Part shown: piece by piece, positions 24,362-64,000 of the stretch
Layout of the letters: each line of letters starts with the position of its first letter
Numbering within the stretch: the first letter of the stretch is position 1
Source: an uncultured Chloroflexia bacterium
Lineage (GTDB): Bacteria; Chloroflexota; Limnocylindria; Limnocylindrales; CSP1-4
Length of the DNA: 64,000 bases
Assembly (NCBI GenBank): GCA_963814315.1
Contig: CAWFCG010000001.1
Coordinates: 3,687 to 67,686 of the forward strand
Direction of reading: 5' to 3'
The notes under the pieces: model-generated
What the model was told of the DNA's origin: nothing
Database searches by the model: none
What the model saw: the letters and a program-made list of their open reading frames with translations, nothing else
Position numbers and translations under genes: made by a program

Positions 24362-24702
<341 letters not shown>

Positions 24703-52231: not shown

Positions 52232-52839
52232 AGCTGCGTCGAGTGACCCCGGAGGCAGCGGGTTGGGGCCAGACCAAGGTCGGGCCGTGGACTCGCCACG
52301 AGCGGCGTCTCGGCTATCGAAACCCCTGGATCACCGTCTGGCATGACGATGTCACCCGGCCCGATGGCGAGCCGGGGATCTACGGCGTCGTCCACTTCGA
52401 GAACAGCGCTGTCGGCGTCGTTGCTATCGACGAGCAGGACCACGTCGTCCTGGTGGGCCAGCATCGCTACGCCTTCGATGAGCTGTCATGGGAGATCCCC
52501 GAGGGTGGCTCGCCGACGGGTGAGGATTCGCTCGCTGGTGCCAAACGGGAACTGCTCGAGGAGACCGGCATCACGGCGCGGTCGTGGCGTGAGATCGGCC
52601 GCTGGCAACTCTCCAACTCAGTCACTGACGAGGCCGCGGTGACGTATCTCGCCACCGACCTGCAGCAAGGCGAGGCGCAGCCGGAGGGTTCAGAGGAGCT
52701 GGCAGTCAGGTGGTTACCGTTCGACGAAGCCATGGAGATGGTGCGCCTGGGCGAGATGACCGACGCCCTGTCGGTGTTGACACTGCAGACATTGGCGCTG
52801 GAACGCGCGCGCGGCGGCGAACGCGCGGGCGGCAGCTGA
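52228..52839 (+). CDS. NUDIX hydrolase (ADP-ribose pyrophosphatase-like)
   Basis: Nudix box GGSPTGEDSLAGAKRELLEETGI; overlaps the SDR stop (TTGA). Confidence 0.7.
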   Translation: MKLRRVTPEAAGWGQTKVGPWTRHERRLGYRNPWITVWHDDVTRPDGEPGIYGVVHFENSAVGVVAIDEQDHVVLVGQHRYAFDELSWEIPEGGSPTGEDSLAGAKRELLEETGITARSWREIGRWQLSNSVTDEAAVTYLATDLQQGEAQPEGSEELAVRWLPFDEAMEMVRLGEMTDALSVLTLQTLALERARGGERAGGS

Positions 52840-53284
52840 GGACGCTGGCAGGCATCGCGCCTCGCAGGCACCACGAAAATCTGACCTGGCTGGCGCGCCG
52901 ACTGAGGACGCTAGGCAGGCACTTGACCTCGCCGGGCCGGCAAGTGTCCGGAATCCCGGATAGAGCGAGCAGATCCGACGCGTGGGACCGGACCGGCGGC
53001 GCTCACGACCGAGCCTTGCCGCCCAGCGGGGTCGGAATCGACCATTTCGTGCCGACGCGGGCCGACTACTCACCAATACTCCTGGCTCGATCGCCCAATT
53101 CCTGGCCGGATCGATCATCGTCTGGCTCGACCCTCGATGCACGGACGATCCTGTTCGCCCCATGTGGGAATCCGGCACGTTGGGCGCTGCCTCACGGGAC
53201 GGCCTCATGGAGAAGCCGAGGGCCGGAAGCACACAAGGCCTGCGCCGGGACATCAGTCGACCCGACACAGGCCGGAACCTCGGT

Positions 53285-53313
53285 TTGACAGTGCTGTCGG
53301 CGGCCGCTACTGT
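53285..53313 (+). promoter_or_regulatory. Sigma-70-like promoter (TTGACA - 17 nt - TACTGT) driving the aromatic leader and superoperon
   Basis: Consensus -35 at 53285..53290 and a TAnnnT -10 at 53308..53313, read from the sequence. The predicted TSS is ~3-5 nt before the leader ATG. Confidence 0.4.
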
Positions 53314-53323
53314 CCGAAGCCAC

Positions 53324-53350
53324 ATGACACGTTACTGGTACTTTAGCTAG
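53324..53350 (+). CDS. Aromatic-amino-acid leader peptide MTRYWYFS (8 codons, Tyr-Trp-Tyr-Phe)
   Basis: ATG ACA CGT TAC TGG TAC TTT AGC TAG, located 145 nt upstream of the DAHP synthase start and followed by an intrinsic terminator. Confidence 0.5.
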   Translation: MTRYWYFS

Positions 53351-53404
53351 CGGACACGAGGCGGCCGGGGGAGATCCCGGCGGCAGAGGCACTCGTGCCC
53401 GCGA

Positions 53405-53437
53405 CGCAGGACCCTCAGGGGCCTGCGTTTTTTCTTT
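53405..53437 (+). terminator. Rho-independent terminator / attenuator hairpin (CGCAGGACCC-tca-GGGGCCTGCG followed by TTTTTTCTTT)
   Basis: 9-bp GC-rich stem with one bulge, then a 6-U tract. Lies 58 nt upstream of the DAHPS ATG. Confidence 0.6.
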
Positions 53438-53494
53438 GCCTCATACGACACGAACGACCGAAGCAAGACACGACTGGATAAGGGTGGTAGCGAG

Positions 53495-54868
53495 ATGATC
53501 ATCGTGATGCGCACCGGAGCGGCGCAGGAAGAGATCGACGAAGTCAAGCAGGCCGTCGCGGCGGAGGGCCTGGAGACCTACGTGATGGTGGGCGAGGAGC
53601 GCATCGTCATGGGCGTCGTCGGTGTCGGCGTGGAGCGTGTGCAGCACGTCGAGCTGCTGCCCGGCGTGGAGCAGGTCATCCGCGTCAGCAAGCCCTACAA
53701 GCTCGCCTCGGTCGAGCACCACCCCGGCCGATCGAGGGTCCGGGTCGGCCCCGTCGAGATCGGGGCGGGCGCACCGGTGGTAGTCATCGCGGGGCCTTGT
53801 GCGGTCGAATCACGCGAACAGGTGTTGGCCACCGCGCGCTGGGTCAAGCGCGAGGGTGCCACCATCATGCGCGGCGGCGCCTTCAAGCCACGCTCCTCAC
53901 CGTACGCCTTCCAGGGACTCGGAGTCGAGGGTCTCAAGCTGTTGGCCGAAGCGCGCGAGGCCACGGGGCTACCCGTGGTCAGCGAGATCACCGACCCGGC
54001 CGATGTGCCGGTCTTCGATGAGTACGTCGACATGCTGCAGGTCGGCGCCCGCAACATGGCCAACTTCGTGCTCCTGAAGGCCGTGGGCCGGTCGAAGAAG
54101 CCGGTGTTGCTGAAGCGGGGCCTCTCGGCCACCATCGATGAGCTGCTGATGGCGGCTGAGTACATCTTAAGCTCCGGCAACCCCAACGTCATCCTTTGCG
54201 AGCGGGGCATCCGCACCTTCGAGACCGCCACCCGCAACACGCTTGACCTCTCCGCCGTGCCGGTCGTCCAGCAGCGCACGCATCTGCCCATCATCGTCGA
54301 TCCGTCACACGGCACCGGACAACGCGCCCTGGTGCGTCCGCTGGCCGTGGCCGGGGCCGCCGTGGGTGCCGATGGCATCATCATCGAGGTCCATCCCGAT
54401 CCGCCGAGCGCGCGTTCCGACTCCGAGCAGTCGCTCTCCTTCCCCGAGTTCGGTGACCTCATGGACGACCTGCGTCGCCACGAGTACCTGCGTCAGCCGA
54501 CCGCGCCGCATGTGCAGATCCACATCGAGCCACCGGCCGAGCGCAGACGGTTGCGGTCTCGTATCGATGATGTCGATTCACGCATCGCATCCTTGCTCGA
54601 AGAGCGGGCCGAGCTGTCGGTGGCCGTGCAGCAGACGCGAGATCCTGGCGACCACGGGCACGACGTGGGCCGTGAACGCGAGCTTATCGAGCGCGCCTCG
54701 CACGGCGGCGAGGGCGTGCTCACACCGGACGAGGTCGAGATGGTGTTCGGCGCCATCCTGCGCGTCTCACGCTCCGCCCAGCGTCGCAACGCCGCGGTCG
54801 ATGCTGCGGTCGCGGGTGGCGCCAGTCCGGACGCCGCGGCCGTCACGGGCAATGGTCTCGGCCAGTGA
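53495..54868 (+). CDS. Tri-domain type I-beta DAHP synthase: N-terminal ferredoxin-like (FL/ACT-like) regulatory domain + catalytic barrel + C-terminal AroQ-class chorismate mutase
   Basis: Residues 1-340 align closely with Thermotoga maritima DAHPS including its FL domain ([19 protein letters not shown]..., [35 protein letters not shown]). The C-terminal [28 protein letters not shown]...RERELIERA matches the chorismate mutase type II signature. Confidence 0.8.
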
Positions 54869-56226
54869 GCGACGAGCCTTCGACGCACGAGCGAAACGAA
54901 CGGGAAGAGGGGGACGGATTGGTCCGCGCGGCGCCGGCGCTGCTGGGTTCGTTGCGCCTGCCGGCCGACAAGTCGGTCGGGCACCGCGCTCTGCTCTTCA
55001 GTGCCATGGGCAGCGGCGCGGCTGAGATCCGCCTCGACCGGCCCGGTGAGGACATCCTCTCGATGGCCGGTGTGCTGCAGAGGCTGGGCGCGGTGCGCTC
55101 CGTCGAGACCGACGCTGCCGGCGTGGTGCGCGTCATCATCGATGGTGGCGGCTCGCCCAAGGCCGCCCGCCTGCCCGGGCGCGGTGGTGAGACGCTCGAC
55201 TGTGGCAATGCCGGCACCGCTATGCGGCTGCTCACGGGGGCGCTCGCGGGACGCCCCGCCGTGGCTACGCTGACGGGCGACTCGTCACTCTCGAGCCGAC
55301 CCATGGAGCGGGTGGCCGAACCACTGCGGATGGTTGGTGCAGAAGTGACCACGACGGGAGGCCATGCGCCCGTGGTCGTGGTCGGCCGGCGCCCGCTGCA
55401 GGCAGTCGATCACACGTTGTCGGTCGCCAGCGCCCAGGTCATCGGCTGCCTGACGCTGGCCGCCCTGGCGGCCGAGGGCACCACTACCATCACCGTTCCC
55501 GGTCCCACCCGCGACCACACCGAGCGCATGCTGGCCTGGTTGGGGGCACCGGTTCGACGCGAAGGGCAGCTCACCACCATCGAAGGCCCGGTCGGCTTCG
55601 ACAACCGTGACATCGCAGTCCCCGGTGACATCTCGTCGGCGGCCGCCTGGCTCGTGGCGGGCGCCCTCCATCCCGATGCCCACATCATCATCGAAGACGT
55701 GGGCCTGAACCCATCGCGCACCGGCATCATCGACGTGCTGCGCGACATGGGGGCGGAGATCAAGGTCGCTTCGGAAGGGCCGACCCACGACTGCCCCGAG
55801 CCGGTCGGCACCATCACCGTCGACGGCGGCCACCCGCTGCATGCCATCGATCTCGCCGGTGACCGCGTCGCCGACATCATCGATGAGCTACCGCTCATCG
55901 CGGTGGCCATGGCGGCGGCGGACGGGGTGAGCACCCTGCGCCATGCCGCCGAGCTGCACTTCAAGGAATCGGACCGCATCAAGCTGGTGGTCGAGAACCT
56001 GCGGGCCGTCGGCGCACACGCCGAGGAGCGTGAGGATGGTTGGGTAGTGTCCCGTGGCGTGCCCCGCGATGCGGCCATCCGTACCCTGGCCGACCATCGC
56101 ATCGCCATATCGTTCGCCATCGCCGCTCTGGCCGGCGTGGCCGGTACCGTTGACATCGACGATCCCGCCTGCGCGGCCGTCTCCTATCCCACCTTCTGGA
56201 CGGACATGGAGCAGCTCATCCCATGA
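54865..56226 (+). CDS. aroA: 3-phosphoshikimate 1-carboxyvinyltransferase (EPSP synthase)
   Basis: [26 protein letters not shown]-terminal motif. GTG start overlaps the DAHPS stop (GTGA). Confidence 0.85.
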
Positions 56227-57518
56227 CCCTGCGACGCCTTCGACTCCTCACTGCCGGCGAGTCCCACGGACCAGGCTTGTCCGGAATCCTCGAGGGCCTC
56301 CCGGCCGACCTTCGCGTCTCCACAGCCAAGGTTGACAAGGAGCTGGCTCGACGGCAGCACGGCTACGGCAGCGGGCGACGTATGACCATCGAACGTGACC
56401 GCGTGGCGTGGACGGCGGGCCTTCGCTTCGGTCGCACGCTGGGTTCTCCCCTCGCCTTCAGTATTGCCAACCTCGACTGGACCAACTGGGAAGAGCGCAT
56501 GTCAGTCGAGCCGACCGCCGCATCGCGCCGGCCCAAGCCCATCACCCTGGCGCGCCCGGGACACGCCGACCTCGCAGGCGCGATCAAATACGACACCGGC
56601 GACATCCGCAACGTGCTCGAGCGCGCCTCCGCTCGCTCCACGGCTCCTCGTGTCACCGCCGGCGCGGTCTGCCGCCAACTGCTGGAGGTGTGCGGCGTGC
56701 GCATCTGGTCCTTCGTCGACCAGCTGGGGCCAGTGCAGGCGTACGGAGGCGTCGATGAGCCGGCAACCCTGGTGCCGGCAGATTGGGTCGGACAGGACCG
56801 GCGCCATCCCACGCCACTGCGATGCCCTGATCCCGAGGCTGAGGCGGCCATGATGACCGAGGTAGACGCAGCCATCGCGGCCGGGGATTCGGTCGGCGGC
56901 TCATTCGTCGTAGTCGCGCAGGGCATGCCCGTGGGCATCGGCTCGAGCGCCGAGTGGGACACGCGTATCGACACCGCCATCGCCGCGGCACTGATGGGCA
57001 TCCAGGCCGTGAAGGGCGTGGAGATCGGCCTGGGATTCGGGACGGTGGCACGACGTGGCTCGCAGATCCACGACGAGGTGAAGCCAGGAGCGCCCGACTG
57101 GGAGCGCAAGACCAATCGTGCCGGCGGCACGGAGGGCGGCATGAGCAACGGCGCTGACATCGTGGCTCGGGTGGCCGTCAAACCGGTCTCTACGCTTCGC
57201 AAGCCGCTCGACTCGGTCGATCTGGAGACGGGCGAGGTGCGGCGCGCGCACATCGAGCGCAGCGACGTGGCCATCACCCCGCGCGCGGCGGTGGTGGGCG
57301 AAGCCATGCTGGCGCTGGCCCTGGCCGACGCCCTGCTGGCCGACCTCGGTGGCGACACCATCGCTGACGTGCGGGCGGCCGTACGGCGTCGCCGCTCGCG
57401 CTCCAGAGGTCCACGCGGCGGGACCGCGGCATCGGGCCTGATCGATGCGCTGCCGGACAACGCCGCCGAAGAGGCCACGGCTGTCGAGGGCAGCGTGGTC
57501 GAAGGCGCCGACGCCTGA
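56223..57518 (+). CDS. aroC: Chorismate synthase
   Basis: LRLLTAGESHGPGL signature; ATGA overlap. Confidence 0.85.
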   Translation: MTLRRLRLLTAGESHGPGLSGILEGLPADLRVSTAKVDKELARRQHGYGSGRRMTIERDRVAWTAGLRFGRTLGSPLAFSIANLDWTNWEERMSVEPTAASRRPKPITLARPGHADLAGAIKYDTGDIRNVLERASARSTAPRVTAGAVCRQLLEVCGVRIWSFVDQLGPVQAYGGVDEPATLVPADWVGQDRRHPTPLRCPDPEAEAAMMTEVDAAIAAGDSVGGSFVVVAQGMPVGIGSSAEWDTRIDTAIAAALMGIQAVKGVEIGLGFGTVARRGSQIHDEVKPGAPDWERKTNRAGGTEGGMSNGADIVARVAVKPVSTLRKPLDSVDLETGEVRRAHIERSDVAITPRAAVVGEAMLALALADALLADLGGDTIADVRAAVRRRRSRSRGPRGGTAASGLIDALPDNAAEEATAVEGSVVEGADA

Positions 57519-58303
57519 TGGCAGTGGCGCTGTCGTTCCAGCTGCTCGGTCACGGCATCGCCTACTCGGCGTCACCAGCCATGATGTCCGCCGCCTTCGC
57601 GGCCCTGCATCTGCCGCATCGATACATGCTGGCCGATGTCCCGGCAGCCGAGGTTGCCACTGCCGTGTCGCGGCTGAGGGAACGAGACTCGGGCGGAGCC
57701 AACGTCACCGTGCCCCACAAGACCACCGTGGCGGCGCTGATGGATGATGTCTCCGACGTGGCGCGTGCCGCCGGTGCGGTCAACACCGTGGTCCGCGAGG
57801 GTGATCGGCTCATCGGGCACAACACGGACATGCCGGCCACGGTCGAAGCCATCGAGCGGCTTTGTCCTGATGGTGTGGGCCACGCACTCATCCTCGGCGC
57901 CGGCGGCGCAAGCCGCGCCGTGCAGCTGGCGCTGGCGGAGGTCGCCGTTGGGCGCGTGACGGTCTTGCGCCGCTCTGACGGCTCGCTGGAACACCTGGCC
58001 GACGCCATCATCAGCGCCGATCTACTGGTCAACGCCACGCCGGTGGGGACCGGCTCCGACGAGAGCCTGGTGCCGATGGAGCTGCTGCGCCCGGGCCTGG
58101 CCGTCCTCGACCTGGTGTATCGGCCCAGCCCGACGTGCCTGGTTCGTGATGCCCGAGCCGTCGGCGCCAGCGCCGAATTGGGTGCCGCCATCCTGCTGGG
58201 CCAAGCTTGGCGTTCGCTGGAGCTGTGGCTTGGGACGCCAGCGCCGATCGACGTGATGCGCGCGGCATTGGATGCGGAGCTCGGCGGTCACGCTGGTGTC
58301 TGA
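57518..58303 (+). CDS. aroE: Shikimate dehydrogenase
   Basis: GIAYSASPAM and NVTVPHK motifs plus the NAD(P) motif GAGGASRAV; TGATG overlap with aroC. Confidence 0.8.
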   Translation: MAVALSFQLLGHGIAYSASPAMMSAAFAALHLPHRYMLADVPAAEVATAVSRLRERDSGGANVTVPHKTTVAALMDDVSDVARAAGAVNTVVREGDRLIGHNTDMPATVEAIERLCPDGVGHALILGAGGASRAVQLALAEVAVGRVTVLRRSDGSLEHLADAIISADLLVNATPVGTGSDESLVPMELLRPGLAVLDLVYRPSPTCLVRDARAVGASAELGAAILLGQAWRSLELWLGTPAPIDVMRAALDAELGGHAGV

Positions 58304-59903
58304 CGCCATCGTCCTGGTGGGCCTGTCAGGCAGCGGCAAGTCCACCGTGGCGACCCTCGTCGCAGCACGCTTGGGGCGACCCCTGGTCGACCTCGACCGC
58401 GAGATCGAGTCGCGCGAGGGCGCCCATCCTGCCGAGCTCATCAACACTCGCGGTGAGGCAGCCTTCCGGGCCATCGAGTCGGCCGCGGTCGAGCGCGCCT
58501 GCGGCATCGGCGGCGCGGTCATCGCCACCGGTGGCGGCGCGGTCGTCGATCCCCTGAACCGTTGGGCGCTGTGGCACGCGGGTGTCGTGGTCTGGCTTGA
58601 TCTGCCCGACGAGGTGCTCAGCGGCCGGCTGGAAGGTCACGCCGAGGAGCGACCCATGCTGGCCGGCAACACGCTGGCGCAGTTGGTGGCCATGCGCGCG
58701 GCCCGGACCCGCTTCTACCGAGCCGCGGATGTTCGCGTCGATGCCACCGGCCCTGCCGATGCCGTGGCGCGTCGCGTCATCGAGGTCGCCGCCGAGGGGC
58801 GCCCAGCGTCTCGACGGCTCTTCGACGGCCTGGTCCGTCGCGACCACCGCATGGGGCCGGACACGGCGCGCGTGGTACTGGGCAACCAGTTCGACCGGGC
58901 CACGCTTGATGACATCCTGGCCCCCAGCAGCAGCGGCACCCCGGTCATCTTCGCGGACCGTCGTGCAGCTGCCGCACTGCCCGAGCTGATGGCGTCACTA
59001 CCCACTGAGCGGCAGATCCGCATCGCGACCGGAGAACGGCAGAAGCGCCTGCGCACGGTGGAGAAGCTGCTGGAAGCCGCCAGTGCCATAGGCGCCGAAC
59101 GCGGCGATGCCTGGGTCGGTGTCGGCGGCGGCACCGCGACCGACATGATCGGCACGGCCGCTGCGCTCTACCTGCGCGGTGTGAGCTTCGTGGCCGTGGC
59201 CACGACCTGGCTGGGCATGACCGACGCCGCCATCGGTGGCAAGGTCGCGGTCGACCTCTCAGCCGCCAAGAATGCTGCCGGGGCCTTCTGGCCGCCGGTC
59301 GCCATCATCGGAGACGTGGCCACGCAACGGTCACTGACTCGAGCGCGCCGCCTCGATGGCATGGCCGAATTGCTCAAGAGCGGCCTCATCGGCGACCCCT
59401 CGCTGTGGGCCCTGGTCGAACGTCGCGGCAAGGCCGCGCTGCATGACGACGAGGCGGCACGCTACGCCATCATCGACCGATCGGTGCAGCTCAAGCTCGA
59501 TATCGTCGATCGCGACCCCTTCGAGCGGGGAGTTCGTCGTTCGCTGAACCTGGGACACACGTTGGGACATGCGCTGGAGATCGAGAGTGGCTACCGATTG
59601 CCCCATGGCATGGCCGTCGTGCTGGGCCTGCGTGCGGTCGCCCATATCGCGCAGGGTCGCGGTGCGCAGGCCGGTCTGGCCCAGCACATCGATGAGGTCG
59701 CAGGCAACCTCGGCTACCAGCTCCACCGCGACTTCGATCCCGTCGTCGTCAAGCAAGCGCTCACACGTGACAAGAAGCGCATCAAGGGCCAGCAGCGTTG
59801 GATCCTGCCGGTGGCTGTCGGCGAGGTGATCGACGTGGCCGATGTGACCGAAGCGGAGATCGACGCCGGCATCCGCGCCATCAGCTCGGCGGCTGCGCGA
59901 TGA
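58272..59903 (+). CDS. aroK/aroB: Shikimate kinase fused in-frame to 3-dehydroquinate synthase (AroK-AroB bifunctional protein; aroB would otherwise begin at the internal Met near 58860)
   Basis: N-terminal GLSGSGKST Walker A plus RGEAAFR (the AroK lid). From about residue 200 it is AroB: GERQK, AIGGGTATDMIGTAAALYLRGVSFVAVATT, LNLGHTLGHALE. There is no stop codon between the two domains in this frame. Confidence 0.7.
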   Translation: MRSSAVTLVSDAIVLVGLSGSGKSTVATLVAARLGRPLVDLDREIESREGAHPAELINTRGEAAFRAIESAAVERACGIGGAVIATGGGAVVDPLNRWALWHAGVVVWLDLPDEVLSGRLEGHAEERPMLAGNTLAQLVAMRAARTRFYRAADVRVDATGPADAVARRVIEVAAEGRPASRRLFDGLVRRDHRMGPDTARVVLGNQFDRATLDDILAPSSSGTPVIFADRRAAAALPELMASLPTERQIRIATGERQKRLRTVEKLLEAASAIGAERGDAWVGVGGGTATDMIGTAAALYLRGVSFVAVATTWLGMTDAAIGGKVAVDLSAAKNAAGAFWPPVAIIGDVATQRSLTRARRLDGMAELLKSGLIGDPSLWALVERRGKAALHDDEAARYAIIDRSVQLKLDIVDRDPFERGVRRSLNLGHTLGHALEIESGYRLPHGMAVVLGLRAVAHIAQGRGAQAGLAQHIDEVAGNLGYQLHRDFDPVVVKQALTRDKKRIKGQQRWILPVAVGEVIDVADVTEAEIDAGIRAISSAAAR

Positions 59904-60343
59904 GGATCCTGCTGCTCAACGGGCCCAACCTGGGTCGCCTCGGCCAGCGCCAACCGGAAGTGTACGGCTCGACGACGCTGGCTGAGGTCGAGGAGGCCGC
60001 AGCCAGCCACGCCAAGAGCCTGGGTCACCAGGTCACGACGTTTCAGTCGAACCACGAAGGGGCGCTCATCGACCGCATCGAGCGACGGGATTACGACGCC
60101 ATCGTCATCAACCCGGGCGCTCTGACGCACTACGCCTGGTCGCTCCACGACGCTCTGCTGGGTGCCGAGTGCCCCGTCGTGGAGGTCCACCTCAGCGACA
60201 TCATGGCGCGGGAGGCATGGCGGCACGTGTCGGTCATCGAACCGGTCGTGAGCCACCGCGTCCTGGGACATGGCTGGCGCGGGTATCTCGAGGCCATCGA
60301 CTACCTGCATGAGCACGCCGCAGACCGCGGCCAGCCCTCCTGA
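59900..60343 (+). CDS. aroQ: Type II 3-dehydroquinate dehydratase
   Basis: ILLLNGPNLGRLGQRQPEVYGSTTL...HEGALID...NPGALTHY matches the type II DHQase signature. ATGA overlap. Confidence 0.85.
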   Translation: MRILLLNGPNLGRLGQRQPEVYGSTTLAEVEEAAASHAKSLGHQVTTFQSNHEGALIDRIERRDYDAIVINPGALTHYAWSLHDALLGAECPVVEVHLSDIMAREAWRHVSVIEPVVSHRVLGHGWRGYLEAIDYLHEHAADRGQPS

Positions 60344-60360
60344 TACCCAGAGGACCCAGC

Positions 60361-61805
60361 ATGACACCCCAACTCCCGCGCCCCGGCCTTGCCGGTGTTG
60401 CCGCTGTCGAGATCAGCGCCGACACCATCTCGCCGGTCACCGCCGCGCTGCGCCTGCACGACCAGCAGCGCCTCGCCTTCATCCTCGAATTGGTCGAGGG
60501 CGGCGCCCGCTACGGCCGCTACTCGATGGTCGGCGTGCGCGGCCGCTACCTCAGCTACGACGATGGCGTGGCCACCATCCACAGCTACGACTACGCCGAA
60601 GTCGATCGCTTCGACGAGGCGGACCCGCTGGAGGCGCTGCGCCGGTTCCTGCCCGAGGTTCCCGTGCAGGGACCGCTGCCGGTGTCGCTGGCATCCGGCG
60701 TCGGCTATCTCGCCTATGAGGCTGCCGCGCACTGGGAGAGACTGCCGGTTCCCGAGGCTGACCCCGTCGGCCTGCCCGAAGCGCTGTTCCACTTGCCGGA
60801 CGTGCTGATCGTCTTCGACCACTTGGGCCAGACGGCCACGCTGGCCACCATCGACGGAGCCGGCGCCGGGGAGCGTTTGGCCGATGCCGCCGCCATGCTG
60901 GCGCGACCTTCGGCCATCGAGGCGGCCGTGCCGATCCCGTCCGGATCCACGCGTCCCCAGCCACCCGCCGCCGATGCGCGCTACGAAGCCGGCGTCGCCA
61001 GCCTGGTCCGTGACATCCACGCCGGCGAGATGCTCCAGACGGTGCTGGCCCGCCGCTTCAGCCTGCCCTGCACGGTGGGGCCGCTGGAGGTCTACCGCTC
61101 ATTGCGTCGCATCAATCCCTCGCCGCACTTGTTCGCCATCGACTGCGGGCCTCACCGCTCGGTGCTGGGTGCTTCGCCGGAGTTGCTGGTGCGGGTGCGC
61201 GACGGCGTCGTTGCCACGCGGCCCATCGCCGGCACGCGACCCCGGTCGGCCGACCCCATCATCGATGCTGAGCTGGAGGCCGACCTGCTGGCCGACGAGA
61301 AGGAGCTGGCGGAGCACGCCATGCTCGTTGACCTCGCCCGCAACGACGTCGGACGCGTGGCCACGCCGGGCAGCGTGCGGGTGCCCTCGCTGCACGCCAT
61401 CGAGCGCTACTCACATGTGATGCACATCGTCAGCGAGGTCGAAGGCGAGCTGGCGGCCGGTCGGGACGCCTTCGATGCGGTCCGCTCGGTGTTCCCGGCG
61501 GGCACGTTGTCCGGCGCGCCCAAGGTGCGTGCCATGCAGGCCATCGCCGAGCTGGAACAGGAGCAGCGCGGTCCCTACGGCGGGGCCATCGGGTTCTTCG
61601 CGCCCGACGACGTGGAGGTCGCCATCACCATCCGCTCGATGGTGCTGAAGGACGGCACCGCCTACGTCCACGCCGGGGCTGGCATCGTGGCTGACTCGGT
61701 GCCGGCCCGCGAATCGGCGGAGGTGGCAGCCAAGGCGGGTGCCATCCTTGCCGCCCTCGCTGATGCCGAAGCCATCTATGGGACCGACCGACCGGAGACC
61801 GACCG

Positions 61806-61809
<4 letters not shown>
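60361..61809 (+). CDS. trpE: Anthranilate synthase component I (TrpE; PabB-type aminodeoxychorismate synthase not excluded)
   Basis: Chorismate-binding family motifs: the LLES-like element ILELVEGGARYGRYSMVG, plus GTLSGAPKVRAMQ and GGAIGFF. Confidence 0.75.
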
Positions 61810-62426
<617 letters not shown>

Positions 62427-62444
62427 CCCGCGCACCGAAGAGAC

Positions 62445-62834
62445 TCAGGAGGGCGCGATGACCTCGATGCCGTTGGCTCCGGCAGCGGCAGCCAGCGTGG
62501 CGTCGTAGGTCACGAATCCCTCCAACTCATCACCGAGCTCCATGGCCGCTGCGAGATGCAATGCGTCGAGGCTGCGAAGCACGCTCGGCTCCAGGCTGGC
62601 GGCACGCTCGCAAACCCTGGTCGACAGACCCAAGAGCAACAATCCCTCCAGGACGGCTCGAGCCCGCTCCCTTCGGTTCGGGGTGACCCTTCGAGTCGCT
62701 CGCATCAACTCAGTCCGAAGCAGGTCACTGCCGATGATCCGCTCCGCGCGAGGTTCGATCCACTCCTCCATGGCCCGCGAGTCGACTTCAGCTACGACGA
62801 GCTTCATGGCGGCTGACGTGTCGATATAGAACAC
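62445..62834 (-). CDS. vapC: Type II toxin, PIN-domain VapC family
   Basis: PIN acidic residues in MFYIDTSA (D5) ...E...D...D context. 129 aa. Immediately downstream of the antitoxin gene. Confidence 0.75.
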   Translation of the reverse strand: MFYIDTSAAMKLVVAEVDSRAMEEWIEPRAERIIGSDLLRTELMRATRRVTPNRRERARAVLEGLLLLGLSTRVCERAASLEPSVLRSLDALHLAAAMELGDELEGFVTYDATLAAAAGANGIEVIAPS

Positions 62835-62837
62835 GCG

Positions 62838-63113
62838 TCAGTACCGTTCCACGTTTCGCATCCGGATGAGCTCCTCAGACAGTGAGGATTCGCCCGGGCC
62901 CAATGGCATGGCTGGCGGCAGATCACGCAAGCTGCGGAGGGCCGGGCGAGCCAGTCCAGCCGCGATGAGCTCCTCCACTCGGCTGGACTGGATGGGCACC
63001 AACATGGCCACCGGACGACCGCGATCGGTGATGGTCACGTAGTCGCCGTTGGCTGCTTCTGCCACGACAGCCGACGCGTTCTGCTTGAGTTCCCGGATTC
63101 CGACTTGTCGCAT
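62838..63113 (-). CDS. Type II antitoxin, Phd/YefM family
   Basis: MRQVGIRELKQNASAVVAEAANGDYVTITDRGRPVAMLVP matches the YefM/Phd N-terminal fold consensus. 91 aa. Confidence 0.75.
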   Translation of the reverse strand: MRQVGIRELKQNASAVVAEAANGDYVTITDRGRPVAMLVPIQSSRVEELIAAGLARPALRSLRDLPPAMPLGPGESSLSEELIRMRNVERY

Positions 63114-63290
63114 GTGCTACACGGTAGTACAGCGGCGACCACACTTCTATAGGGTCTCGACCGATCGGTCGGCAGCGGCGGTCTTGCTGGCTAGGACCAG
63201 AGACGGTTTGGACTCGACGGGCCACTCCCCCCGCCCGATAATGGACGAGCATCCGGGACCTTCCCGGATCGATCAACGGAGGAGTTCAAC

Positions 63291-64000
63291 GTGACCACAC
63301 GACCAGCCACCAGCCCAGGCAGGCGCATCCTGGCGCTAGGCTCGAGCGCCGTGCTCCTCGCGGCACTGAGTGCGGCGGCCGCAGCGCCGGTAGCGGCGCA
63401 AGACGCAGTCCAGACCAGCGGTTGGGACGGACTCGGCGACGTCACCTTGAGAGTCGCCGCCGAGAATGCCTCGGTCGACTCCCTGACGGCCCTTGCCGAT
63501 GCCTTCATGGCCGAGTACCCCAACGTCACCGTCGAGCTTGACTTCAAGGATTTCGATAGCTACATGGCGACGGTCCTGAACGTGGCGGATCTGCCCGATG
63601 CCCCCGACATCCTGCTGGGCAACCAGGGTTATGTCACCGACGGCGCGCTCGTGGGTGCCGGTCTCATCCGCAGCCTTGACCCCTACTACGAGGCGTACGG
63701 CTGGGACGACTGGTACGGCGCAGGTGCCATGGACCAGTTCCGCTTCACCGAGGACGGCCTGACGTTCGGCCAGGGGCCCCGCTGGGGCATCTCCGAGTCC
63801 GCTGACTTCGTGGGCGTGTTCTACAACGTGAGCAAGCTGGCCGCTCTCGGACTGGAGCCCCCGACGAACTTCTCCGAGCTGGAGAGCGCCATGGCCGCGG
63901 CGGCTTCGGCAGGCGAGCTGCCGGTCAAGCTGGGCAACCTGCAGGGCTGGCCCGGCACGCACACGGCCGGAATCGCGCAGGGTGCGCTCTGGCCGGCCGC
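63291..64000 (+). CDS. Extracellular solute-binding protein (carbohydrate ABC SBP), N-terminal part; runs off the right edge of the window
   Basis: GTG start; signal peptide RRILALGSSAVLLAALSAAAAAPVAAQ; SBP family-1-like N-terminal lobe. Confidence 0.6.
   Translation, partial: MTTRPATSPGRRILALGSSAVLLAALSAAAAAPVAAQDAVQTSGWDGLGDVTLRVAAENASVDSLTALADAFMAEYPNVTVELDFKDFDSYMATVLNVADLPDAPDILLGNQGYVTDGALVGAGLIRSLDPYYEAYGWDDWYGAGAMDQFRFTEDGLTFGQGPRWGISESADFVGVFYNVSKLAALGLEPPTNFSELESAMAAAASAGELPVKLGNLQGWPGTHTAGIAQGALWPA

Follow-up and report, generated by a model that had tools for sequence, protein, structure and literature searches.

The gene at the head of a shikimate operon in the analysed stretch of DNA (64,000 nucleotides, hereafter the window) encodes a protein in which an FL regulatory domain, a type I-beta DAHP synthase barrel and a C-terminal chorismate mutase (CM) domain of the AroQ class are joined on a single chain. 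The open reading frame starts with ATG, spans positions 53495..54868 of the + strand, on which all features described here are located, and specifies 457 amino acids. The first-pass annotation had proposed this combination, and it is confirmed by a comparison with Pfam, in which all three domains scored above their cut-offs. We find it fairly probable that the whole explanation holds, i.e. that the protein is a three-domain, FL-regulated DAHPS-CM in which both modules feed back and whose operon is led by an attenuator.

Domain layout and the DAHP synthase barrel

Pfam annotation of the 457-residue product placed DAHP_snth_FXD at residues 1-66, DAHP_synth_1 at residues 86-320 and CM_2 at residues 353-429, each above the curated cut-off. 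More specifically, the FL (ACT-like) domain (residues 1-66, 53495..53692) is followed by a connector that forms the N-terminal beta-hairpin of the barrel (residues 67-85, 53693..53749, aligned to Thermotoga maritima residues 67-85; strands 81-84 and 87-90 in the AF2 model) and by the (beta/alpha)8 barrel of the type I-beta DAHP synthase (residues 86-328, 53750..54478; PF00793, PRK08673). An interdomain linker (residues 329-352, 54479..54550) then leads to the CM domain (residues 353-431, 54551..54787; PF01817). Within the linker the start HEYLRQP (329-335) is conserved, residues 336-346 are variable and P347 is invariant. The chain ends in an Ala-rich and poorly conserved tail (residues 432-457, with the stop codon 54788..54868) that overlaps the start of aroA and has a mean pairwise identity of 37%. 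The AF2 monomer consists of the FL fold, the barrel and three helices (pTM 0.62, at which the docking of the domains is unreliable), and the pLDDT drops below 50 at linker residues 340-346 and at residues 441-457.

The barrel scored 272.8 bits against DAHP_synth_1 (cut-off 25.5), and the scores for the NCBIfam models PRK08673 (residues 1-330; 474.5 bits versus a cut-off of 335) and TIGR01361 (385.6 bits versus 267.75) were similarly clear. The top match in both Foldseek and HMMER was the FL-DAH7PS of T. maritima. Residues 1-328 matched that enzyme (1rzm) with an HMMER E-value of 1e-100, and the Foldseek superposition covered 333 columns at about 50% identity. The alignment of residues 1-328 is free of large gaps. 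The T. maritima enzyme (1rzm, 3pg9) has the same N-terminal FL domain and type I-beta barrel, collinear over residues 1-328, the same substrate-binding motifs and the same FL core G-x-E-R-x-V-x-G-x-x-G. However, it ends at the barrel, whereas the protein described here adds a 25-residue linker and the CM domain.

Conservation was counted over 114 aligned family members. Residues C102, H272, E298 and D309 are invariant among them and identical at the aligned positions of the T. maritima enzyme, where we take them to be the metal ligands. The PEP/E4P-binding motifs KPR[ST]SPY, GARN and LKRG are all present and invariant in the family, and so are KPRSSPY at 131-137, R186 and K207-R208. Judged by its residues, the domain is a type I-beta DAHP synthase barrel with the catalytic set intact.

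The chorismate mutase domain

The CM domain matched CM_2 with 44.2 bits (cut-off 27) over model positions 1-79 of 80, so that the earlier assignment of the C-terminal stretch of some 100 residues to this model passed its threshold. In the AF2 model it forms helices at 348-381, 391-402 and 411-440 with a pLDDT of 57-77. We aligned the domain with HMMER to EcCM, MtCM, CgCM and the Geobacillus CM, and compared it to the EcCM active-site set Arg11', Arg28, Asp48, Arg51, Glu52, Ser84 and Gln88 (PMC5526877), supplemented with the catalytic Lys39. Seven of these eight residues are kept. In EcCM order the equivalents are R354, R371, D390, R393, E394, S425 and Q429, the first five of which are invariant in the family, while S425 is Ser in 97 of the 114 members and Q429 is found in 113. 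The eighth position, that of EcCM Lys39 and MtCM Arg46, corresponds to Arg382 (codon 54638..54640), on which three independent alignments agree; it is Arg in 113/114 members and Lys in one, and the catalytic lysine is thus replaced. The domain has a further peculiarity in the H1-H2 loop, where the motif D-H-G-H-D-V (residues 386-391, 54650..54667) is invariant from H387 to V391 and nearly so at D386. Its residue D390 aligns with EcCM Asp48, and the motif was not found in the other DAHPS-CM fusions compared.

The domain does not fall within the curated CM subfamilies. All 26 representatives scored below the cut-off of every NCBIfam CM equivalog model: the best one, TIGR01807, gave 29.7-33.5 bits versus a cut-off of 69.55, the delta model TIGR01808 gave 22.9-27.4 bits versus 52.15, and PRK07857 was likewise below cut-off. 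Against the PDB the CM profile scored 30.2 bits for EcCM, 30.2 for the Geobacillus CM (5j6f, among the top two hits in the structural database), 27.0 for CgCM and 26.3 for MtCM. On these profiles the domain is an atypical AroQ, outside every curated CM subfamily.

The AroQ-delta enzymes deserve a separate comparison. Arg at the Lys39 position has otherwise been reported only for this group, whose members need DAHP synthase for activity. In these enzymes Arg46 replaces an 'otherwise absolutely conserved lysine' and is catalytically competent, and DAHP synthase activates them more than 100-fold (PMC7762937). Both the Arg for Lys and the association with DAHP synthase are thus features that the AroQ-delta CMs (M. 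tuberculosis Rv0948c and the C. glutamicum CM) have in common with the domain described here (PMC7762937). Nevertheless, they are free-standing and associate with a type II DAHP synthase through non-covalent contacts, whereas the present domain is covalently linked to a type I-beta enzyme. In addition, they have a short C-terminus without an equivalent of Gln88, whereas the present domain keeps the equivalents of Asp48, Ser84 and Gln88. We have rejected a classification as AroQ-delta on the basis of the Gln88 equivalent, the full third helix, the profile, which is no nearer to delta than to alpha, and the scores below the cut-offs of the delta models.

Two other types of fusion provide a reference. 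The DAH7PS-CM enzymes of Prevotella nigrescens and Porphyromonas gingivalis likewise carry an AroQ CM behind the barrel in a single polypeptide, but they are without an N-terminal regulatory domain, where the present protein has FL at residues 1-66. For such C-terminal CM-linked enzymes, interdependent activities and inhibition by prephenate have been described (PMC8408635, PMC12202928). As proxies for this type we used the FL-less C-terminal CM fusions P0154, P0173, P0257, P0200 and P0263; Pfam indeed reported no FL domain in P0154, P0173 and P0257. The proxies keep the catalytic Lys, in contrast to the Arg found here, and the CM_2 scores of P0154, P0173 and P0257 are 68-71 bits versus 44 bits here. 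A derivation from a Prevotella-type DAH7PS-CM by acquisition of an FL domain is unsupported, as the present CM stands apart through its Arg and its DHGHDV loop and reaches about 35% identity, which is no more than with EcCM, and the barrel of the family groups with CM-less FL-DAHPS and not with the FL-less C-terminal CM fusions; the latter evidence is weak because the tree was made by neighbour-joining without bootstrap. In the second type, the DAH7PS of Bacillus, Listeria and Geobacillus (5j6f, 3nvt), an AroQ domain is also fused to a type I-beta barrel, which is regulated by ligands of the CM site. There, however, the CM is N-terminal, in the place that is held by FL here, and has Lys and not Arg.

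The Lys-to-Arg swap could equally mark a weak or a purely sensory CM. In the sensory case the domain would essentially bind prephenate or chorismate and transmit inhibition to the barrel, by analogy with the CM-like domain at the N-terminus of the enzymes from Bacillus, Listeria and Geobacillus, and a separate enzyme would make prephenate. The replaced Lys39 equivalent and the failure to reach any curated subfamily cut-off are in line with such a role, yet we regard it as unlikely. The remaining active-site residues, including the equivalents of Glu52 and Gln88, are invariant or nearly so in the 114 sequences, and the CM domain has the same dN/dS as the catalytic barrel. Moreover, a search of the six-frame ORFs of the 64-kb window with an AroQ HMM and with AroH (phmmer) for a second CM recovered the domain itself alone. 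The literature points in the same direction, since Arg at the Lys39 position supports catalysis in AroQ-delta (PMC7762937) and a C-terminal CM-linked DAH7PS is often the only CM of the organism (PMC8408635).

The FL domain and the spread of the architecture

The FL domain scored 51.1 bits against PF18152 (cut-off 27), and the scores obtained range from 51 to 70 bits. In the AF2 model it adopts a beta-alpha-beta-beta-alpha-beta fold with a pLDDT of about 90 (strands at 2-5, 27-32, 37-42 and 58-62, helices at 11-23 and 46-54), and it aligns to the FL domain of T. maritima, where this domain has Phe or Tyr as ligand and limits the access of substrate (PMC5526877). Its core shows no variation across the family at G33, R36, V38 and G43 and hardly any at E35 and G40. 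The putative effector site is less constant. The residues at positions 29 and 31, which are His and Ser in T. maritima and presumably contact the tyrosine hydroxyl there, are Tyr29 and Met31 in the protein described here, with Tyr in 105 and Met in 85 of the 114 members.

This difference raises the question whether the FL domain has lost the ability to bind an effector and persists as a structural remnant, such that regulation would proceed solely via the CM domain and the attenuator. Apart from the two substituted positions, a dN/dS that is twice that of the barrel (FL 0.34, barrel 0.17) could be taken as a sign of decay, and the FL domain is below the Pfam threshold in P0190 and in a second, rarer lineage (P0281, 437 aa; P0282, 443 aa). 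The members of this lineage have the same three-part order and are collinear with the family profile over the whole chain, beginning at residue 1 (hhalign: 429 columns, 50% identity, probability 100), but differ in their decayed FL domain (12.7 bits in P0281, no match in P0282) and in their canonical CM, which scores 64-71 bits and has kept the Lys. The P0282 gene adjoins a prephenate dehydratase gene amid transposases, and there is no shikimate operon at that site. However, the Pfam scores are well over the cut-off, the core shared with T. maritima is conserved in the family and the dN/dS is clearly below that of the linker (0.52) and the tail (0.60). In addition, 25 other FL-DAHPS representatives differ strongly from one another at positions 29 and 31, a variability that fits differing effector specificity and not loss; on their own, the Tyr and Met found here are evidence neither for nor against effector binding. 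Overall, we consider an FL domain without effector binding to be unlikely.

With a dN/dS of 0.17 for the CM domain, the values given above show that purifying selection acts on all three domains. The layout is in fact widespread. It was found in more than 120 protein clusters, and the best 120 of these, which were checked, all have an identical, continuous three-domain layout; an uninterrupted three-domain protein is also encoded in about 47 species-representative genomes. In the ORF at 53495..54868 itself neither an in-frame stop nor a frameshift was present between barrel and CM, and the possibility of such an interruption, raised by the first-pass annotation, can be laid aside. The uninterrupted ORF in the 120 best clusters, which stem from independent projects, and in the roughly 47 genomes therefore excludes a sequencing artefact: we attach next to no probability to a joining of adjacent genes for an FL-DAHPS and a small aroQ-type CM by a sequencing or assembly error, against which the conserved linker residues HEYLRQP and P347 speak as well, and for which nothing pleads except that the linker is partly variable and predicted to be disordered.

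Nearly all carriers of the three-domain protein are labelled Chloroflexota or Candidatus Limnocylindrales. The three-domain form is the standard DAHP synthase of a Chloroflexota clade from soil and freshwater (Candidatus Limnocylindria and relatives) and no one-off. The NCBI label on the relatives already reads "bifunctional DAHPS/CM", and no paper describing the combination of FL, DAHPS and CM was found in the literature searched.

Leader, operon and regulatory reading

The three-domain gene is followed on the + strand by aroA (54865..56226), aroC (56223..57518), aroE (57518..58303), an aroK-aroB fusion (58272..59903), aroQ (type II dehydroquinase, 59900..60343), trpE (60361..61809) and trpG (61806..62426), all assigned with Pfam; together, this downstream part spans 54865..62426. 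The stop codon of the three-domain gene overlaps the GTG start of aroA (GTGA, 54865-54868). The gene order was kept in every tri-domain locus with enough flanking sequence. The operon encodes all seven steps of the shikimate pathway plus the anthranilate synthase.

Upstream of the three-domain gene lies an ORF for a leader peptide, MTRYWYFS* (53324..53350), with a run of Tyr-Trp-Tyr-Phe directly before the stop codon. Each of the 46 tri-domain loci checked has a comparable short ORF with 3-5 aromatic codons at a distance of 140-250 nt before the gene, and none was found upstream of six FL-DAHPS-only outgroup loci. The leader RNA that follows (53350..53402) folds into a stem P1 and a hairpin P2 according to the RNAalifold consensus of 35 loci, with which the single-sequence fold agrees. 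P1 (53350-53357 / 53395-53402) begins with the final base of the stop codon of the leader ORF and encloses P2 (53361-53370 / 53376-53384), in which compensatory changes were observed, for instance GC, AU and CG at one pair in 16 sequences. It is succeeded by the hairpin of an intrinsic terminator, GACGCAGGACCC / GGGGCCUGCG (53403..53433), with a U-run at 53428-53433. Over the 35 loci compensatory changes maintain the terminator stem, and the T-run hardly varies. A consensus promoter/terminator scan of 52800-55000 returned no match even though the terminator is evident in the folds, probably because of a bulged A. In Rfam no known leader was matched at gathering thresholds, and a permissive search gave a sub-threshold match to Atu_C8 alone.

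Of the upstream attenuator that had been postulated at first, the leader peptide and the terminator stand, in 46 of the 46 loci checked, whereas an antiterminator was not found in the leader. Minimum-energy folds constrained by three ribosome footprints (masked at the Trp codon, at the last aromatic codon or at the stop codon) kept the terminator in 9/9 sequences, and no antiterminator was seen by eye. A precedent is formed by the aroR leader (Phe-Tyr-Phe) upstream of C. glutamicum aroF (PMC11802643). There, a short peptide with consecutive aromatic codons controls an operon that begins with a DAHP synthase gene (PMC11802643). Unlike aroR, the present leader combines codons for Tyr, Trp and Phe and stands before a complete shikimate plus trpEG operon.

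These data allow a regulatory scheme to be outlined, in which we infer dual allostery, CM activity, the status of the domain as sole CM and three-layer control. Other type I-beta enzymes that are decorated with FL or with an N-terminal CM are homotetramers, and the scheme presumes by analogy that the present enzyme would be one as well. On binding of an aromatic amino acid the FL domains would pair across the tetramer and occlude the active site of the barrel, as in T. maritima. [quoted passage not shown] The CM activity probably depends on an intramolecular contact with the barrel, possibly via the DHGHDV loop and the HEYLRQP linker, because an AroQ of the Arg type is weak alone and is switched on by contact with DAHP synthase. 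Finally, stalling of the ribosome at the Tyr, Trp and Phe codons of the leader would additionally tune the transcription of the whole operon.

A more far-reaching interpretation, which we put forward tentatively and hold to be somewhat doubtful, is that the protein unites in one covalent chain what is a complex of CM and DAHP synthase in mycobacteria, and is equipped with two different allosteric modules. The DHGHDV loop and the HEYLRQP linker would then mediate a contact with the barrel that activates the CM, and CM and barrel would be switched off jointly once an aromatic amino acid is bound by the FL domains. If this is true, one chain would integrate an end-product signal (via FL) and the signal of a branch-point intermediate (via the CM site), to which the leader RNA would add a signal for the supply of aromatic aminoacyl-tRNA. 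Two distinct regulatory add-ons would also have been shown for the first time on a natural DAHP synthase, and the link between an Arg-type AroQ and DAHP synthase would be known from a second, independent case.

DAHP synthase is a textbook case of allostery, in which modules have been bolted onto a conserved barrel. The versions with FL, with an N-terminal CM and with a C-terminal CM have been dissected separately, and engineered chimeras have shown that the modules are transferable. A natural two-module enzyme in a widespread clade provides a direct system to study how two allosteric inputs are combined on one barrel. It also makes it possible to address whether an oligomer can host FL pairing and CM dimerisation together, and whether the Lys-to-Arg change in AroQ accompanies a dependence on DAHP synthase. 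The CM domain furthermore affects the metabolic reconstruction of Limnocylindria genomes: if it is the only CM, these organisms would be misjudged as auxotrophic for Phe and Tyr by pipelines that expect the CM to be encoded by a gene of its own.

Architecture and distribution of the three-domain protein

The open reading frame at 53495..54868 (+), with an ATG start, specifies a chain of 457 residues on which Pfam finds three domains, each above its curated cut-off: DAHP_snth_FXD (residues 1-66, 51.1 bits against 27), DAHP_synth_1 (residues 86-320, 272.8 bits against 25.5) and CM_2 (residues 353-429, 44.2 bits against 27, model positions 1-79 of 80). The first-pass annotation had described a DAHP synthase of the Thermotoga type that carries an N-terminal ferredoxin-like (FL) domain and a C-terminal chorismate mutase (CM), and this description was correct on every point. 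T. maritima DAH7PS (1rzm) aligns to residues 1-328 with hardly a gap (E=1e-100), and PRK08673, the NCBIfam model of the FL-type subfamily, scores 474.5 bits over residues 1-330 (cut-off 335). The junction between barrel and CM in the window contains 0 stops and 0 frameshifts, and the stop codon of the ORF overlaps the GTG start of aroA. A Foldseek structure search yielded no solved structure spanning more than FL domain and barrel.

The layout constitutes a true protein family and is not an artefact. In a search of 5.8 billion clustered proteins, all of the best 120 matches had the same three domains (70-95% identity, lengths about 445-470), and the few named members among them are MAG proteins of Chloroflexota or Candidatus Limnocylindr*. 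With one genome per GTDB species, the full-length protein is encoded at about 47 loci, almost all of them under the label Chloroflexota, Chloroflexia or Candidatus Limnocylindrales. Next, at 55-59% identity, come loci that end at residue about 328; they hold FL-DAHPS genes of the usual kind, from Chloroflexaceae, Bacteroidota, Syntrophales and other taxa. Among 1.84 billion representatives clustered at 50% identity and searched exhaustively with HMMER, a single clean full-length member was recovered (P0121, 66% identity); the family is thus abundant but phylogenetically compact.

Two observations concern the assemblies. MAG CAVQJC01 (MFD09779.bin.2.210) carries the leader, the three-domain gene and the shikimate operon twice, on two long contigs (loci L011 and L046, 87% and 82% identical to the query); a bin that mixes two related genomes is a likelier cause than real duplication. 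In a few loci from long-read-derived MAGs (L039, L046, L047) the best tblastn segment begins 300-500 nt past the expected start, which suggests local assembly frameshifts, not real truncations.

The three domains differ in conservation, as judged from mean pairwise identity over 114 family members and Nei-Gojobori dN/dS over 37 genomic coding sequences, the latter values being approximate because the pairs are non-independent and the genomes GC-rich. Identity and dN/dS were 71% and 0.34 for the FL domain (residues 1-66), 85% and 0.17 for the barrel (86-328), 53% and 0.52 for the interdomain linker (329-352), 77% and 0.17 for the CM domain (353-431), and 37% and 0.60 for the Ala-rich tail (432-457). 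These values indicate that selection maintains all three domains, where the constraint on the CM domain equals that on the catalytic barrel and that on the FL domain is clearly tighter than that on the spacer regions.

Active sites and the position of the chorismate mutase

The DAHP synthase residue set is intact. C102, H272, E298 and D309, which we take to be the metal ligands of the barrel, are shared position for position with T. maritima and are invariant in the family, and so are, within the family, KPRSSPY (131-137), R186 in GARN and K207-R208. The AF2 model of the barrel has pLDDT > 90, with the DAH7PS enzymes of T. maritima, A. pernix and P. furiosus as top Foldseek matches. There is no reason to doubt the predicted DAHP synthase activity.

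The FL domain is modelled as a beta-alpha-beta-beta-alpha-beta fold (pLDDT about 90), and its core motif G33-x-E35-R36-x-V38-x-G40-x-x-G43 is conserved in the family and common to T. maritima. The T. maritima residues His29 and Ser31, which presumably contact the tyrosine hydroxyl, are replaced by Tyr and Met in the three-domain protein; within the family Tyr29 occurs in 105/114 and Met31 in 85/114 members. These positions show many combinations, including H/I, H/S and F/S, in 25 other FL-DAHPS representatives. We read this spread as variable effector specificity, such that the sequence cannot name the ligand here.

For the CM domain, equivalences were derived from HMMER alignments to the E. 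coli (EcCM), M. tuberculosis (MtCM), C. glutamicum (CgCM) and Geobacillus N-terminal enzymes and from MAFFT, which agreed; the EcCM active-site set was taken from PMC5526877 and conservation was counted over 114 members. The set is nearly complete. Arg11', Arg28, Asp48, Arg51 and Glu52 of EcCM correspond to the invariant R354, R371, D390, R393 and E394, Ser84 to S425 (Ser in 97/114) and Gln88 to Q429 (113/114). The position of Lys39 is taken by R382, with Arg in 113/114 members and Lys in 1/114. Only the AroQ-delta enzymes, the subclass of MtCM and CgCM, are reported to have Arg (Arg46) in place of this "otherwise absolutely conserved lysine"; they are without the Gln88 equivalent, are poor catalysts alone and are activated > 100-fold by binding of DAHP synthase (PMC7762937).

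Despite the shared Arg, the domain does not belong to AroQ-delta. Unlike those enzymes it keeps the Gln88 equivalent, and it also has the Asp48 equivalent and, in the AF2 model, a full third helix. The family profile lies equally far from alpha and delta enzymes (EcCM and Geobacillus CM 30.2 bits each, CgCM 27.0, MtCM 26.3), and in none of the 26 representatives scanned did an NCBIfam CM model come near its cut-off. The H1-H2 loop, the element that positions Arg46 in AroQ-delta (PMC7762937), carries the motif D386-H387-G388-H389-D390-V391, in which H387-V391 is invariant and D386 nearly so. The other DAHPS-CM fusions compared all have Lys and are without this DHGHDV motif. Because of the Arg together with the kept Asp48 and Gln88 equivalents, the equidistance, the NCBIfam shortfall and the loop, we treat the domain as an unclassified lineage of AroQ enzymes whose catalytic Arg resembles that of the delta subclass.

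Related architectures and origin

Barrel identity to proteins outside the family is 60-66% for every architecture. In a neighbour-joining barrel tree, calculated without bootstrap, the family lies beside the CM-less FL-DAHPS P0127, P0137 and P0145 and not beside the DAHPS-CM fusions, a weak hint that its barrel may be nearer to the former.

A second collinear lineage was found via P0190 and consists of P0281 (437 aa) and P0282 (443 aa); therefore the three-part order is not unique to Limnocylindria. With hhalign, P0281 is collinear with the family profile over its whole length, starting at residue 1 (probability 100, 429 columns, 50% identity). Both members have a decayed FL domain, which scores 12.7 bits in P0281 and gives no match in P0282, but a canonical CM with Lys (64-71 bits). 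The layout of P0190, P0272 and P0273 seems to be the same, except that a decayed remnant is left of the CM. A canonical FL domain paired with an Arg-type CM is a feature specific to the Limnocylindria clade. The P0282 gene (8001-9332 in L081; loci L081-L083) overlaps the prephenate dehydratase gene that comes next and lies among transposase and integrase genes on contigs of 5.8-6.3 Mb; the arrangement resembles a Phe-branch module of mobile or accessory nature.

Further fusions were encountered. P0153 (385 aa) combines a barrel without FL domain with a C-terminal CM of the AroH class (Bacillus subtilis type; 45% identity to BsAroH over 118 residues), a different CM fold at the same fusion position, and we know of no description of such a fusion. 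FL-type DAHP synthases are fused C-terminally to prephenate dehydrogenase and ACT in P0128 (714 aa) and to EPSP synthase in P0147 (770 aa). P0129 (629 aa) joins an FL-type DAHP synthase to prephenate dehydratase and ACT; here Pfam misses the FXD domain, but the query aligns from residue 2. The barrel C-terminus seems a hotspot for fusion to downstream pathway enzymes.

Genomic context, regulation and implications

The gene is the first of an operon that comprises all seven shikimate steps, the CM and anthranilate synthase, all on the forward strand: aroA (54865..56226), aroC (56223..57518), aroE (57518..58303), an aroK-aroB fusion (58272..59903; 543 aa, SKI + DHQ_synthase + DHQS_C, kept in related loci), aroQ for a type II dehydroquinase (59900..60343), trpE (60361..61809) and trpG (61806..62426). 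Wherever the flank of a related locus is long enough, the gene order is identical. Downstream (62430-64000, +) the operon ends without trpD, and therefore the remaining trp genes must be elsewhere; after a gap of about 900 nt follows a gene reaching the window end, which by eye resembles one for a secreted solute-binding protein.

The attenuator proposed earlier upstream of the gene stands as to its aromatic leader ORF and its terminator, which are conserved. The leader ORF (53324..53350, +) translates to MTRYWYFS, with a mix of Tyr, Trp and Phe codons. According to a consensus of 35 aligned leaders, helix P1 starts on the last base of its stop codon and encloses hairpin P2 (53350-53402, +), followed by a terminator hairpin with U-run (53403-53433, +); 9 of the 26 consensus pairs show compensatory changes. 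In the survey (L001-L047, L059, L075), an equivalent leader (YWYF, FWFY, FFWYY or YWSF) with a T-run about 100 nt downstream preceded the gene in 46/46 related loci, and both were absent 5' of 6/6 FL-DAHPS-only outgroup loci. Folds constrained by a ribosome footprint, placed at three sites, retained the terminator in every case and revealed no antiterminator pairing. C. glutamicum aroR offers a precedent, being an aromatic leader 5' of a DAHPS gene (PMC11802643).

The closest Rfam family, RF02502 Atu_C8, matches the leader (53319-53443, +) over its full length, albeit at 33.6 bits versus a threshold of 50 (E=2e-5). It is listed as a Rhizobiales "sRNA", yet its consensus opens with AUG AUU AUU CUU GUG GUG, which in translation resembles a leader peptide rich in Ile, Leu and Val, and the family may be an attenuator of the same architecture. 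The only Rfam match in the window above its gathering score is a tRNA gene (24616-24702, -, 64.1 bits).

Characterised relatives suggest how the enzyme might be controlled. In T. maritima, binding of Phe or Tyr to the FL domain restricts substrate access (PMC5526877), and by analogy the FL domains would pair upon aromatic amino acid binding and gate the active site. The CM domains would dimerise, as in characterised relatives, to form the active sites that yield prephenate. Occupancy of these sites could in turn act on the barrel by feedback, as known from the enzymes of Prevotella and Geobacillus (PMC8408635), and CM activity may depend on the barrel, as in the Prevotella/Porphyromonas fusions (PMC8408635, PMC12202928) and AroQ-delta (PMC7762937). 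The AF2 monomer model (pTM 0.62, CM pLDDT 57-77) is too weak to test domain docking.

In reviews and primary papers through 2025, the only DAH7PS decorations named are FL, N-terminal CM and C-terminal CM (PMC8408635, PMC12202928, PMC5526877), and our literature search found no paper describing an FL + DAH7PS + CM protein. Hundreds of such proteins are already present in the sequence databases, some labelled bifunctional by the NCBI pipeline. All modules are of known kinds, and the three-domain protein is real, conserved and unstudied. It is of experimental interest in that it unites two regulatory add-ons on one enzyme and links an Arg-type CM to a DAHP synthase.
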